Shown here: positions 30,031 to 33,974 of the stretch, in pieces | How positions within the stretch are numbered: the stretch's first letter is position 1 | How the letters are laid out: each line of letters starts with the position of its first letter | Origin: Dehalococcoidia bacterium | GTDB lineage: Bacteria > Chloroflexota > Dehalococcoidia > Plut-88900 | Direction: 5' to 3' | NCBI GenBank assembly: GCA_965197645.1 | Contig: OZ240219.1 | Span: 448,001 to 512,000, forward strand | DNA length: 64,000 bases | Made by a program: the position numbers and the translations under genes | The notes under the pieces: generated by a model | Told to the model about the DNA's origin: nothing | Database searches by the model: none | The model's input: only the letters and a program-made list of their open reading frames with translations

Positions 30031-30204
30031 CAGGGTGTCGGAGCACCCTTTCGCGACCATCCCCCTGGCCCCCTTCCTGGCCAGGAAGGGGGCCGAAAAA
30101 GAGATAGTTTCTGAGGGACACCCTCAGACTCCCGGCCCCCAGCAGGTAGTCTCAGAAGAACTTGCTTCGCCCCTCTGCACACCCCGTGCATCATCGGCCG
30201 GTTA
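30028..30204 (+). repeat. repeat family 1, copy 2
   Basis: Fills the entire gap between convergent SDR and threonine synthase stop codons. Confidence 0.9.
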
Positions 30205-31368
30205 GAGGACGTCGAGGTACTTCAACCCCGACCCGGTGTTGATGAGCAAGACAGTATCGGTGGGTGACACGGAGCCCGCCTTCAGCAGCTTCTTGAGCCC
30301 CGCCAGAGTCGCCGCACCCTCCGGGCAGGCGAAGATCCCTTCCGTCGAGGCGATCTCCCCGACACATCCGGCCATCTCCTGGTCAGACACTGTGAGCGCC
30401 GTTCCCCCGCTGCTCCTGACCGTATCCAGTATCAAGTAGTCGGCCACGGGCGAAGGGACCCTGAGTCCAGCAGCCATGGTGGAGGGATCGGGCCACGGTT
30501 CCGCCGACTCCGTTCCCTCCTCGAACGCCTTGACGATAGGTGCGCACCCCTCCGCTTGTACGGCCACCATGCGAGGTCTTTCGCTCCCTATCCAACCTAT
30601 GGCTTCCATCTCCTCGAACCCCTTCCATATTCCGAGCAGGCCGGTGCCGCCACCCGTTGGATAGACGATGACGTCCGGCAGCTTCCAGCCCATCTGCTCC
30701 GCTATCTCCAGTCCGAGGGTCTTCTTCCCCTCCAACCGGTACGGCTCACAGAGGGTGGACACATCGAACAGCCCCCGCTTCTCGGCCCGTAGACGCATCT
30801 CCCTTCCGGCATCGGCGATGGACCCTGGAACGAAGGCCAGCTTCGCTCCGTAAGCCCTGCACTCCTCAACGTTTGCCCTGGGGGTGGTATCCGGCAGCAC
30901 CACGTATGCCTCGATCCCTCCTCGAGCGCAGTAGGCCGCCATCGATCCGGCCGCGTTTCCCGCCGAGGGCATACCCAGCCGGTCCGATCCCAGCTCCCAA
31001 GCCCTGGAGACCGCAGCGGAGAGACCTCTATCCTTGAAGGAACCGGTGGGATTCAGTCCTTCGTCCTTGATGTACAGATCGGCGCACCCGATCCGCGTTC
31101 CCAGGCGCTGGGCCTTGGCTATGGGGGTGAACCCCTCTCCCAGGCTGATGACCCGGCCGGGGTCTCGCACCGGCAGCAGCTCGTGGTAGCGCCACATAGT
31201 GGAAGGACGCCCCGAAAGCTGCTCCTTGGTGAGGTCTTGAGCTATCTGCGTCAGGTCGTACCGGGCGTACAGCACCTTGTCGCAGTCGGGACACAGGTTT
31301 TGCGGTACATCCGCGGAGTGGGACTTACCGCAGCCGGTACACTCAAGGCGAGAGAGGTAGCTATACAC
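30202..31368 (-). CDS. thrC: threonine synthase (PLP-dependent, N-terminal Zn ribbon)
   Basis: SLGEGFTP, NPTGSFKDRG, SAGNA, EGKKT, PTGGG, NTGSGLK. Confidence 0.85.
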   Translation of the reverse strand: MYSYLSRLECTGCGKSHSADVPQNLCPDCDKVLYARYDLTQIAQDLTKEQLSGRPSTMWRYHELLPVRDPGRVISLGEGFTPIAKAQRLGTRIGCADLYIKDEGLNPTGSFKDRGLSAAVSRAWELGSDRLGMPSAGNAAGSMAAYCARGGIEAYVVLPDTTPRANVEECRAYGAKLAFVPGSIADAGREMRLRAEKRGLFDVSTLCEPYRLEGKKTLGLEIAEQMGWKLPDVIVYPTGGGTGLLGIWKGFEEMEAIGWIGSERPRMVAVQAEGCAPIVKAFEEGTESAEPWPDPSTMAAGLRVPSPVADYLILDTVRSSGGTALTVSDQEMAGCVGEIASTEGIFACPEGAATLAGLKKLLKAGSVSPTDTVLLINTGSGLKYLDVL

Positions 31369-31376
31369 GTTCGATG

Positions 31377-32039
31377 CTAGGACGACTGCTTGGCTTTCCG
31401 GTAGTGCTTACGGGCCTTGGCTCGATTGCCACAGCCCTTCATGTCGCACCAACGCCGGCTTCGGTTTTTCGTGAGGTCCATGAACAAGGAGTTGCAGTCT
31501 TCCGCGGCGCACTTGCGCACCCGTTCCAGCCGCTCCGAGATCAGCAGGTAGCTGGCGGACTCGATCATCGGCCATAGGACCCTATCCAGGGTCTCGTCGT
31601 CGTTGGTCCAGTCCCACTCAAACCCGGCTCCCGTGAAAACGATTCCTGTCTTCCCCATCAGAAACACCAACTCGTCGTTGAACATATCCAAGGCCGATTC
31701 ATCGGGCTCTTGGTTCTCGGCAATGGATGAGAATATGCGGTAAATCGCCTCCCGGAGCAATACGGCCCGGTTCAGGACTGCCTTGGCATGAAGAGGATAC
31801 TCCTCGGCCCTTTTGGATAGCGCCTGGGCCTCGGTATCTGTGATAAAACCCTCCGTTTCGGCCCATGTCACAATGCAAAAGTAGCTCTTAAGGTAGTCCT
31901 TTGGCTTGGTCCTCCCGGATCGATGGTCGAGGGTTCCGGTGAACTCCAGGCAACAAGGGCCGTCCGAGTTACCGAAGGTTATGGCGATCTCGTCTCTGTG
32001 GTCCTGAGAGCCATTTTCATCAATTTCTAAATTAACCAT
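31377..32039 (-). CDS. ABATE / CGNR zinc-finger domain protein (DUF1470)
   Basis: CLEFTGT N-terminal motif; C-terminal CAAEDC...FMDLTKNRSRRWCDMKGCGNRAKARKH. Confidence 0.93.
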   Translation of the reverse strand: MVNLEIDENGSQDHRDEIAITFGNSDGPCCLEFTGTLDHRSGRTKPKDYLKSYFCIVTWAETEGFITDTEAQALSKRAEEYPLHAKAVLNRAVLLREAIYRIFSSIAENQEPDESALDMFNDELVFLMGKTGIVFTGAGFEWDWTNDDETLDRVLWPMIESASYLLISERLERVRKCAAEDCNSLFMDLTKNRSRRWCDMKGCGNRAKARKHYRKAKQSS

Positions 32040-32060
32040 CAATAACCCCTTGACAGGTTA
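32033..32060. promoter_or_regulatory. 28-bp inverted-repeat box 1 (TAACC-N18-GGTTA)
   Basis: TAACCATCAATAACCCCTTGACAGGTTA; overlaps CGNR start codon and the -35 element. Confidence 0.7.
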
Positions 32061-32078
32061 GTTTGTCCGTCCTATACT
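32050..32078 (+). promoter_or_regulatory. near-consensus sigma70 promoter
   Basis: TTGACA-17 bp-TATACT. Confidence 0.8.
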
Positions 32079-32079
32079 A

Positions 32080-32107
32080 TAACTATCAAAAGCATTATAG
32101 CAGGTTA
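32080..32107. promoter_or_regulatory. 28-bp inverted-repeat box 2
   Basis: TAACTATCAAAAGCATTATAGCAGGTTA over predicted +1, just before GGAGG RBS. Confidence 0.7.
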
Positions 32108-32124
32108 ATGAAGGGAGGGTCAAT

Positions 32125-32385
32125 ATGAGTGTACTAGCTGTCGAGAGGGCGCAGGGGGACCTACTCACCCCGCCAGCCGGAGCCAGGGAAGCTAGGACGG
32201 CTGGGCAGAACGTTCTTAGAGGCATCCGGCCAGCAGCTTCGATGGCCGGGGGAGCACGTAGGATGCTGGCCCAAGGGTCCCGGATCATAGAACTGGCCGT
32301 CTTGGGCCTGGTCTCCAGCATCCCGGGCGGACTGGAAGCGGTGTCCACCACTTCGAGTAGGACCGGAAATAAAGTGATTGGCTAG
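32125..32385 (+). CDS. orphan small protein (86 aa)
   Basis: AAGGGAGG RBS and strong promoter; no family recognised. Confidence 0.6.
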   Translation: MSVLAVERAQGDLLTPPAGAREARTAGQNVLRGIRPAASMAGGARRMLAQGSRIIELAVLGLVSSIPGGLEAVSTTSSRTGNKVIG

Positions 32386-32428
32386 CTAACCATTCACCCG
32401 GCGTCCAAAAAAATTTTGGCTCATAGGC

Positions 32429-32456
32429 TAACCTACAAAGCGTTATTAGAAGGTTA
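32429..32456. promoter_or_regulatory. 28-bp inverted-repeat box 3
   Basis: TAACCTACAAAGCGTTATTAGAAGGTTA just before AAGGAGG RBS. Confidence 0.7.
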
Positions 32457-32476
32457 ATGAAGTAAGGAGGAATCAG

Positions 32477-32806
32477 ATGAAGGTAACAGCAACACAGCAG
32501 GCGCAGACCCAGCAGGCAGAGACCCCTCTGCACATCATGCCGATACTGGAGGCACGTCAGAAGGAGATTGCGCTGGCTGACTCCACCGGCGCCGTCCGGA
32601 AGGCCATCGAGACGGGCGTAACGGGACTGAGGATCGCTAGCCGGTTTGCCCTCTCCGTGGCGGGCGCAATTGGCCGGGCCGTCTTCTTCTCGGACGTCAA
32701 CTCGCCTGTCCTGGGATACCAGGCCTCCAGCCGCCGGGTCTTCTCGGAAGCTGACGAAAAGCCCTGGCAGTCCGACTGGCAGCTCTACTCCCACGCTAGG
32801 AGATAG
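32477..32806 (+). CDS. orphan small protein (109 aa)
   Basis: TAAGGAGG RBS; GC3-rich codons; no family recognised. Confidence 0.75.
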   Translation: MKVTATQQAQTQQAETPLHIMPILEARQKEIALADSTGAVRKAIETGVTGLRIASRFALSVAGAIGRAVFFSDVNSPVLGYQASSRRVFSEADEKPWQSDWQLYSHARR

Positions 32807-32936
32807 TCCGACGAGCTAGGAAACAGCCGGGGACGATAGAGGCCTGCTCCCATCGCTGGCACGGTGGGAGCAGGCCTCGTGATATAATCGCCCACCTAAG
32901 AACGTAGCCTTGAAAGGACCGAGAGGTGGACCAGCC

Positions 32937-33974
32937 ATGACGGAGCCGATTCGAATAGGCATAGTGGGGGCAGGCAAGAACACTCGCGATTTCCACATTC
33001 CCGGCTTCCAAGCCGCCGAGGACGTGGAGGTCGTGAGTGTGTGCAACAGGAGCCGGGAGTCCAGCCAGCGAGTAGCGGACCAGTTCGGCATCCCTCGCAT
33101 ACACGACAGCTGGCTCGACCTGGTTGAAGACCCCGATATCAACGCAGTATGCATCGGGACCTGGCCCTATCTCCACTGCCGAACCACCCTTGCCGCCCTG
33201 CAGGCGAACAAGCACGTGCTCTGCGAGGCCCGCATGGCTATGAATATCGATGAAGCCCGTCTCATGCTGGAGGCCTCTCGAGGGAAACCCCACCTGGTCA
33301 CACAGATCGTACCTTCGCCCTTCACCTTCGGGGTGGACGCCACGATAAAAGACCTGATCAACGAGGGCTTTGTCGGCGACCTCCTCGCCATCGACGTCAC
33401 CTTCAGCCCCCACAATTTCGTGAACAAAGAGGCTCCGCTGACGTGGCGCCAGGACAGGGACCTGAGCGGCAACAACATTCTGTACATGGGCATCTGGTAC
33501 GAGGCCCTCATACGATGGGTGGGTCATGCCACCGACGTGACGGCGATGACTTCGGTCAACGTACCTCTGCGTTCCAACGAAGAGGGAGAGCCCATCGCCG
33601 TAAGCGTGCCCGATCACGTGGACATTCTGTGCCGGATGGCATGCGGCGCCCAGGCCCGGCTCAGATTCAGCGACGTGACCGGCATCGGCCCCAAGGACTC
33701 GGTCTGGATCCACGGATCGGAGGGCACGCTGCATCTGGACCTGGATACATTGAAGCTGTATGGAGGCCGCAGGGGCGAAGACTCGCTCAAAGAGATCACC
33801 GTGCCCCCGGAGAAGCAGGGGTCTTGGAGGGTGGAGGATGAGTTCATCAACGCCATTCGCGGTCTGGAGAAGGTCCGTCTGACCAACTTCGAGGATGGTT
33901 ACAAGTACATGGAGCTCACCGAGGCCGTCGCCCTCAGCGCCTCGACGGGTCGGACCGTACACCTGCCCCTTTGA
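32937..33974 (+). CDS. Gfo/Idh/MocA family oxidoreductase
   Basis: IRIGIVGAG, KHVLCEARM, IHGSEG. Confidence 0.92.
   Translation: MTEPIRIGIVGAGKNTRDFHIPGFQAAEDVEVVSVCNRSRESSQRVADQFGIPRIHDSWLDLVEDPDINAVCIGTWPYLHCRTTLAALQANKHVLCEARMAMNIDEARLMLEASRGKPHLVTQIVPSPFTFGVDATIKDLINEGFVGDLLAIDVTFSPHNFVNKEAPLTWRQDRDLSGNNILYMGIWYEALIRWVGHATDVTAMTSVNVPLRSNEEGEPIAVSVPDHVDILCRMACGAQARLRFSDVTGIGPKDSVWIHGSEGTLHLDLDTLKLYGGRRGEDSLKEITVPPEKQGSWRVEDEFINAIRGLEKVRLTNFEDGYKYMELTEAVALSASTGRTVHLPL

Follow-up and report, generated by a model that had tools for sequence, protein, structure and literature searches.

A CGNR/ABATE gene and three boxes in its divergent region

We describe here a candidate operator, well supported by sequence comparison and conserved across phyla, for the uncharacterised CGNR zinc-finger/ABATE family of regulators, as found at one locus of a Dehalococcoidia bacterium (assembly GCA_965197645.1, contig OZ240219.1). 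The window, by which we mean the whole stretch of 64,000 nucleotides that was analysed (contig positions 448,001 to 512,000, forward strand), is numbered from its own first letter. The regulator gene lies on the minus strand at 31377-32039 and encodes 220 amino acids (aa) from an ATG at 32039, with a TTG one codon upstream. On the same strand a threonine-synthase (thrC) paralogue at 30202-31368 begins 8 bases past the regulator stop, and in the divergent direction two small open reading frames (ORFs) occupy the plus strand, ORF1 at 32125-32385 (86 aa) and ORF2 at 32477-32806 (109 aa).

An original prediction, made from the letters of this DNA alone, had placed three 28-bp boxes of the form TAACY-N18-GGTTA in this region, and each was confirmed at its coordinates. 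Box 1, the proximal operator candidate, is TAACCATCAATAACCCCTTGACAGGTTA at 32033-32060. Box 2, the distal operator candidate, is TAACTATCAAAAGCATTATAGCAGGTTA at 32080-32107, and box 3, which resembles the distal type (TAACC..CTAATA...TTTG.AGGTTA), is TAACCTACAAAGCGTTATTAGAAGGTTA at 32429-32456 between ORF1 and ORF2, its end lying 20 bases from the ORF2 ATG. No strand is assigned to the boxes as features, and all three have the same polarity when read in the regulator's direction. The internal CAA that they were said to share falls at box positions 8-10 and matches a moderately conserved TTG of the cross-genome consensus given below, and the common sequence into which boxes 2 and 3 were said to run, GGTTAATGAAG, was seen at 32103 and 32452, with one further copy only in the genome.

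Several smaller features accompany the boxes. The repeated GGTTAATGAAG supplies an ATG directly after boxes 2 and 3, creating two mini-ORFs, one of 6 and one of 2 codons (32108-32128 and 32457-32465); the terminal ATATGA of the 6-codon mini-ORF overlaps the ORF1 ATG, and both mini-ORFs may be fortuitous. A lone TAACC half-site at 32387-32391, 42 bases 5' of box 3 and with no GGTTA at 28-bp distance, is possibly the decayed partner box of box 3. An AT-only palindrome, CCAAAAAAATTTTGG, lies at 32406-32420 between ORF1 and box 3; right next to it, related strains vary at 32403 and 32404 and lack one base at 32407. Contigs from these strains carry three changes in box 3 among the differences listed, all of them in the spacer with the arms unchanged. 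None of the differences listed, outside which there are 32 more, falls within 31993-32128.

In a pattern search TAACY-N18-GGTTA occurred in the window at exactly three places (5 strand matches), compared with a mean of 0.04 matches in 100 dinucleotide shuffles of the window, none of which reached 5. The original prediction had allowed for a motif that is frequent at random in this genome, and it is not: on the single contig of 3,211,320 bases (60.8% G+C) the pattern has 3 sites, all at the CGNR locus, and the looser TAAC-N20-GTTA adds 2, both GC-rich and unrelated. When the genome was scanned with a position weight matrix (PWM) trained solely on box sites from other genomes, boxes 1, 2 and 3 scored 32.7, 32.5 and 32.8 bits, respectively, as against 16.7 for the runner-up site and 16.4 in a reversed-genome control. 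Because of this gap between the boxes and the next site, the regulon in this genome would be a local one.

The boxes overlap core elements of two predicted promoters

A sigma-70 consensus scan of 31900-33000 returned two promoter-like sites, each with 11/12 matches. The first, TTGACA-17-TATACT at 32050-32078 on the plus strand, faces ORF1 and has an inferred start site near 32085. Box 1 had been described as covering both the CGNR ATG and the -35 of this promoter, and box 2 as sitting on its +1. Both descriptions stood: box 1 holds the plus-strand TTGACA (32050-32055) and, on the minus strand, the regulator's Shine-Dalgarno (SD) sequence (32046-32051) and ATG (32039-32037, within ATGGTTA), and box 2 begins 2 bases past the plus-strand -10 and so covers the inferred start site. 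We amend this picture with a second promoter, predicted on the minus strand for the CGNR gene itself. It consists of TTGACC-18-TATAAT plus a TG extension and spans 32123 down to 32094; its -10 (32094-32099) lies inside box 2 and its -35 overlaps the SD/ATG region of ORF1. The boxes thus have the placement of operators, overlapping core promoter elements of both the regulator and its putative target. Since the promoters overlap and their inferred starts are ∼2 bases apart, two occupied boxes would cover the core of both. A scan for intrinsic terminators found none in the ORF1-ORF2 gap or past ORF2, and RNA run X1 gave a single 151-base contig over 31899-32049 that has no bearing on transcription or start sites.

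This geometry bears on the direction of control. With overlapping promoters that start so close together, a bound CGNR protein could favour one direction, and it might therefore activate, or switch between, the divergent promoters instead of repressing them. We think this unlikely. Boxes over the -35, the -10 and the start sites are in the classical position of a repressor, and promoters this near to consensus require no activator, even if the 11/12 match of both is weakly informative either way.

The position of the boxes also raises the question of whether they act as DNA or as RNA. Some zinc fingers bind RNA. Box 1 is in the predicted leader of the regulator, over its SD and ATG, and boxes 2 and 3 end 5-8 bases ahead of an SD, so that a UAACC...GGUUA leader hairpin, or an mRNA site for the zinc finger, could control translation of the regulator and the small ORFs. 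However, an Rfam scan of 31000-33500 with E up to 1 gave no match, and three leader folds were about as stable as their shuffles (z of -0.37, +0.33 and -0.01), with the arms left unpaired in the minimum-energy structures. The arms showed no compensatory change in the 116 sites sampled from other genomes (below), though only 1 base of each 5-base arm was left free by the search pattern. A start near 32085 would also leave the left arm of box 2 untranscribed, and the boxes are palindromic and worked into promoter hexamers on both strands. We regard an RNA role as quite improbable and favor repression at the DNA level.

The boxes recur beside related genes under more than 10 phylum labels

A set of 61 genomes of the same class contains 9 that encode a CGNR homologue. 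All five closer loci, in four of these genomes (G001, G002, G021 and two in G007; 35-47% identity), have 2-4 boxes each beside the gene and share the layout of the window, in which a proximal box with CTTGACAGGTTA on the divergent strand is followed by a spacer of ∼17 bases, a -10, and a distal box whose end closely precedes the SD of a small ORF in the divergent direction. Across these four genomes and the present one (G000), 17 of the 21 genome-wide TAACY-N18-RGTTA sites are at CGNR loci (3/3 in G000, 4/5 in G001, 2/4 in G002, 6/7 in G007 and 2/2 in G021), and other genomes of the 61 show scattered single sites at about the level of a reversed-pattern control. Two further observations concern these relatives. 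The whole unit in G007 (the CGNR gene, its three boxes, the small divergent ORF and a convergent serpin-like gene) occurs twice, ∼2 Mb apart (L008 and L014), and the gene after the CGNR gene in G002 (L009, 2182-2580, plus strand) looks by eye like an Hsp20-type small heat-shock gene, which brings to mind the description of the family as 'stress-induced'.

For a wider survey, species-representative genomes were scanned with the protein alignment, which yielded, among the matches listed, 80 loci whose products are 32-47% identical to the window protein; 79 had upstream DNA present and were usable. By their record titles these loci carry more than 10 phylum labels and include Chloroflexota classes, Acidobacteriota, Gemmatimonadota, Dormibacterota, Bipolaricaulota/Acetothermia, Fidelibacterota, Glassbacteria, Methylomirabilota, Desulfobacterota orders, Spirochaetota, Bacillota (including the cultured Tenuibacillus multivorans), Actinomycetes, Proteobacteria and one record labelled as an archaeon. 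The T. multivorans locus (L088) has its boxes at -110 and -62. A strict site, defined as TAAC-N20-GTTA within -250 to +30 of the estimated start, was present in 68 of the 79 loci, compared with 0.18 loci expected from Markov-1 simulations of the same upstream regions (mean 0.19 sites, maximum 2). The enrichment beside CGNR genes elsewhere that the original prediction had proposed as a check is thus borne out. The upstream regions (21,899 bp) hold 116 sites as opposed to 7 in the remaining 359,820 bp of flanks.

An analysis of k-mers that assumes no pattern gave the same motif, with GGTTA/TAACC as the top-enriched upstream 5-mer (223 observed versus 10.4 expected, 72 of 77 loci) and TGTCAA/TTGACA upstream in 57 loci. 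The span from TAAC to GTTA was 28 bp in 116 cases, and no other span occurred more than 7 times, leaving aside 75/76 bp, the distance measured across a whole pair. Spacing within the 44 box pairs was 47 bp in 22 and 48 bp in 8. The 47-bp phasing follows from the promoter geometry, with the -35 in the proximal box, a 17-bp spacer, and the -10 abutting the distal box. In the regulator's direction the proximal consensus reads TAACCTGTCAAg.g..tTTTg.tGGTTA and the distal consensus TAACC..ctAaA.t..tTttg.TGGTTA.a.tat. Chance and remnants of a repeat or a mobile element were considered as origins of the boxes and were rejected in view of the exact 28-bp span, the interlock with the promoters and the cross-phylum linkage.

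The genes beside the boxes differ from locus to locus. Among 45 divergent ORFs scanned, 11 are EamA, 1 is AzlC and 3 are ABM-like, and others include several unrelated small proteins, DinB_2 and CBS; the downstream genes are heterogeneous as well, and PALP/thrC follows the CGNR gene only in the window and in L030. As the regulator and the boxes are the only constant parts, the regulator itself points to being the binding protein. One might instead suppose that the boxes are a conserved promoter architecture, or the site of another widespread factor, that merely travels with CGNR genes, given that the box consensus includes the promoter hexamers TTGACA and TATAAT. Nevertheless, sigma-70 elements do not include TAACC/GGTTA arms with an exact span of 28 bp. 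A different DNA-binding factor is improbable because the neighborhood shares no other gene, because CGNR paralogues in the same genome have different arms (below), and because sites in gene-bearing genomes are almost confined to CGNR loci. We consider such a bystander role for the CGNR protein the least probable of the alternatives, and very improbable in itself.

A common small-protein target was also looked for and is unsupported, as ORF1 and ORF2 match no divergent protein of another locus (BLASTP, E <= 0.01). About 11 loci (L016, L021, L033, L034, L035, L042, L043, L061, L073, L078 and L089) have a divergent protein of 58-85 aa with a similar look by eye, an acidic/Arg-rich helix ...E.L.EAE..R... 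and then ...L...G..L. Pfam matches none of these, and BLAST joins only L033/L042/L089 and L034/L035. Four others (L015, L024, L052 and L093) have, directly past the distal box, a hydrophobic peptide of 37-56 aa, ME.L...(L/V)...(R/K)WG.(N/D)S..., and form one BLAST cluster.

The regulator resembles a solved dimeric protein

The window protein carries an N-terminal ABATE domain (Pfam PF07336, residues 27-166, 42.5 bits versus a cut-off of 24.4, E 1.2e-10) followed by a zf-CGNR domain (PF11706, residues 173-215, 63.4 bits versus a cut-off of 24, E 1.7e-17), and its gene is the sole zf-CGNR match in this genome. Residues C177, C182, C198, C203, G204 and N205, which make up the zinc-ligand cysteines and the CGNR motif, are invariant across 82 sequences, and R206 is invariant in a 6-sequence alignment. 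An AlphaFold2 (AF2) model has a predicted local distance difference test (pLDDT) score of 87.1 and is confident except at residues 1-23. Searched against the PDB with Foldseek, this model matched 3H0N first (E 1.4e-5, probability 1.00, template modeling (TM) scores 0.50/0.58, 16% identity) and nothing else at E <= 0.001, with no DNA complex of this fold among the matches. A sequence search of the PDB likewise gave 3H0N as the only relative (E 4.9e-10).

Modeled as a homodimer, the protein reached an interface score (ipSAE) of 0.52, compared with 0.00 for the best of 3 controls, a value that may reflect memory, as the like dimer 3H0N has been solved. The runs agreed in 100% of contacts with pLDDT of at least 79. 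Among proteins of solved structure, 20 of 30 that form pairs attain that mark, as opposed to 1 of 23 that are single chains. In the model a symmetric interface is formed by residues 111-145 and 163-171, and the zinc fingers (173-215) stay outside it. This model, together with the published dimer of Jann_2411 (PMC2954205), suggests that the window protein may be a homodimer.

Other CGNR clades have similar boxes with different arms

More distant CGNR genes have boxes of 27-28 bp over their own start codon, with other arms and with GGTCAAG or GCTAAAT inside. The L010 box is TCACC-N18-GGTGA, the L011 and L012 boxes are TAACC-N17-GGTTA, and an actinomycete genome in which the family has 9 matches shows the arms TTACT/AGTAA, TGACC/GGTCA, TAGGT/ACCTA and GTAAC/GTTAC. 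At L011 there is in addition a short palindrome, TAACCTGT-GT-ACAGGTTA, ∼45 bases before the CGNR start and beside the 27-bp box; it has the arms of that box only 8 bases apart, about one helical turn shorter.

We sampled 30 diverse loci for inverted repeats with 5-bp arms containing at least 2 A/T, leaving out the loci of two genomes flagged unpublished. Upstream repeats with spans of 26 to 31 bp numbered 13, 13, 17, 9, 16 and 12, respectively, versus 5, 2, 2, 5, 5 and 3 in control regions, and 18 of the 30 loci had a repeat of 27/28 bp. The best-matching protein pairs share arms (L106/L108, L107/L110, L111/L117, L011/L012 and L097/L118), which fits, in a preliminary way, co-variation of regulator and operator.

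A broader proposal would be that the whole CGNR/ABATE (DUF1470) family consists of one-component regulators with one operator plan, in which a dimer binds two 5-bp arms 17-18 bp apart in boxes that form part of the -35, -10 and start codon of the regulator gene itself. The arms would often be nACC...GGTn and would vary by clade, such that paralogues of the same genome stay insulated from each other, and the ligands would be amino-acid-like metabolites, to which the EamA, AzlC and thrC partners would point. We offer this tentatively and lean slightly towards doubting it.

Neighboring genes in the window

The thrC paralogue downstream of the regulator matches NCBIfam NF006050 (565 bits versus a cut-off of 303) and has a Cys-rich N-terminal stretch; two further matches above cut-off, both stronger, lie elsewhere in the genome. 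The order regulator-thrC recurs in L006/L030 with a gap of 10 bases. The regulator transcript probably also carries the thrC paralogue, which adds a gene to those originally proposed. That a thrC paralogue occurs as a partner of these regulators, and that EamA/AzlC exporters are the annotated divergent partners met most often at other loci, could, as a speculation, indicate an amino-acid theme.

Neither ORF1 nor ORF2 matched a family in Pfam and NCBIfam scans. ORF1 has one homologue (86 aa, 69% identity), and 8 of the 12 differences listed for it in contigs of related strains are at codon position 3. ORF2 has homologues of 94, 83 and 71% identity, each of 109 aa. For ORF2 the best ESM Atlas score was 0.77, which is under the useful range, and a metagenome scan gave a single 16-residue match that was not used. 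In one related-strain contig the C-terminal third of ORF2 (32664-32773) is swapped for a diverged stretch of equal length, matching homologues P0002 and P0003, whose C-terminal region is variable. Past ORF2 there is a strong GC-rich hairpin at 32841-32876 (GGCCTGCTCCCA...TGGGAGCAGGCC) that has no T-run and was hence not called by the terminator scan, and after it TGATATAAT may be an extended -10 for a GFO/IDH/MocA oxidoreductase gene at 32937-33974.

A model for autoregulation at the CGNR locus

Because they recur beside related genes in many phyla, the TAACC…GGTTA boxes are very probably the DNA binding site of this CGNR/ABATE regulator family. For the window itself we think it likely, with good confidence, that boxes 1-3 are operators of the adjacent CGNR/ABATE protein, and that this protein is an autoregulating dimeric repressor of itself and of the small ORFs. 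The best reading of the local regulon is the regulator, probably with the thrC paralogue, and two lineage-specific small proteins.

We propose that a homodimer would set one zinc finger on each 5-bp arm, TAACC and GGTTA, with 18 bp between them. Boxes 1 and 2, 47 bp apart, would bracket and overlap the two back-to-back promoters, such that their occupancy would block the -35 and the start site of the ORF1 promoter, from which ORF2 may also be transcribed, as well as the -10 of the regulator promoter, with box 1 also serving as a roadblock in the regulator leader. The outcome would be negative autoregulation together with repression of the small ORFs. Box 3 may be an extra operator in the ORF1-ORF2 spacer, as a roadblock or a looping partner, and the ABATE domain would free the DNA upon binding a ligand. 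The autoregulating repressor of the original prediction agrees with the position of boxes over both divergent core promoters, its dimeric nature being drawn from the model and Jann_2411 only. Control of two uncharacterised proteins, also part of that prediction, would act on ORF1 at the promoter that the boxes overlap; for ORF2, no promoter was predicted before box 3.

Several points weigh against this interpretation. The consensus scan of 31900-33000 found no sigma-70-like site before box 3, which makes the role proposed for this box conjectural. Conservation of 31993-32128 among related strains is suggestive and not proven, the differences listed being incomplete. The survey loci are not independent (L030 is G001, L072 is G007, and several others are close kin), and the taxon labels of metagenome-assembled genomes (MAGs) among them may be wrong. 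Eleven of the 79 loci have no strict site near the start; reading the listed matches, we found that 5 of these have variants with 1-2 mismatches or of 29 bp, L092 has weak 2-mismatch matches only, the pair at L058 lies 1.15 kb upstream, and at 4 loci no site is found nearby. In the other clades the signal is noisy, and by the simple 5-bp-arm criterion a 27/28-bp repeat was not found in 12 of the 30 loci, including L013. Finally, no binding, expression or start-site data for any CGNR protein were found in the open-access literature.

That no established binding site is known for CGNR/DUF1470 proteins, as had been stated at the outset, agrees with our search of the open-access literature and bioRxiv, which found no published operator for CGNR/ABATE proteins (subscription journals were outside the search). 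What that search of PMC open access and bioRxiv found on the family comprises the Jann_2411 structure paper and papers that cite or list the domain. Since the structure paper appeared in 2009 the family has been known only as 'putative stress-induced regulators', and no site, target or ligand is known to have been assigned to it. Yet CGNR/ABATE proteins are widespread, with relatives encoded by at least 578 of 600 stretches among the matches listed. A sharply defined cross-phylum operator makes the open function of the family testable at the bench and gives a route to sequence-based target prediction for each paralogue. A compact pair of zinc-finger repressor and operator with an unusually wide half-site spacing would also be useful for study or engineering. 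In this genome the model would account for a conspicuous AT-rich intergenic region and would place both orphan small proteins, along with a thrC paralogue, under the same regulator.

Comparison with known systems

The nearest characterised protein is Jann_2411 of Jannaschia sp. CCS1 (PDB 3H0N), for which a dimer was reported and ligand-controlled DNA binding proposed; neither a binding site nor a target gene or ligand comes from that work (PMC2954205). Jann_2411 shares the ABATE (PF07336) and zf-CGNR (PF11706) domains and is the closest PDB relative by both sequence and fold, at the 16% identity of the fold alignment. What is added here, from comparison only, is a candidate operator and candidate targets.

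In the TetR/tetO system, two palindromic operators lie between divergent overlapping promoters, and the regulator represses itself and its neighbor. The window has a similar divergent layout, and an exporter is a frequent partner at CGNR loci (the EamA genes above). Unlike TetR, the CGNR reading head is a treble-clef zinc finger and not a helix-turn-helix, its 5-bp half-sites are 18 bp apart instead of adjacent, and its candidate operators, spaced by 47 bp, form part of the -35 and -10. NrdR is a zinc-ribbon and ATP-cone repressor that binds paired promoter boxes and governs a global nucleotide-reductase regulon. It is similar to the CGNR protein in fusing a zinc DNA-binding module to a small-molecule sensor and in using paired boxes of fixed phasing over the core promoter, whereas the CGNR domains are unrelated, the box sequence is different, and the regulon is local and self-centered. 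Ros/MucR proteins are bacterial zinc-finger transcription factors of a Cys2His2-type fold with AT-rich, poorly palindromic targets. The CGNR protein would likewise be a bacterial zinc-finger regulator, but it has no match to the Ros/MucR family in Pfam.

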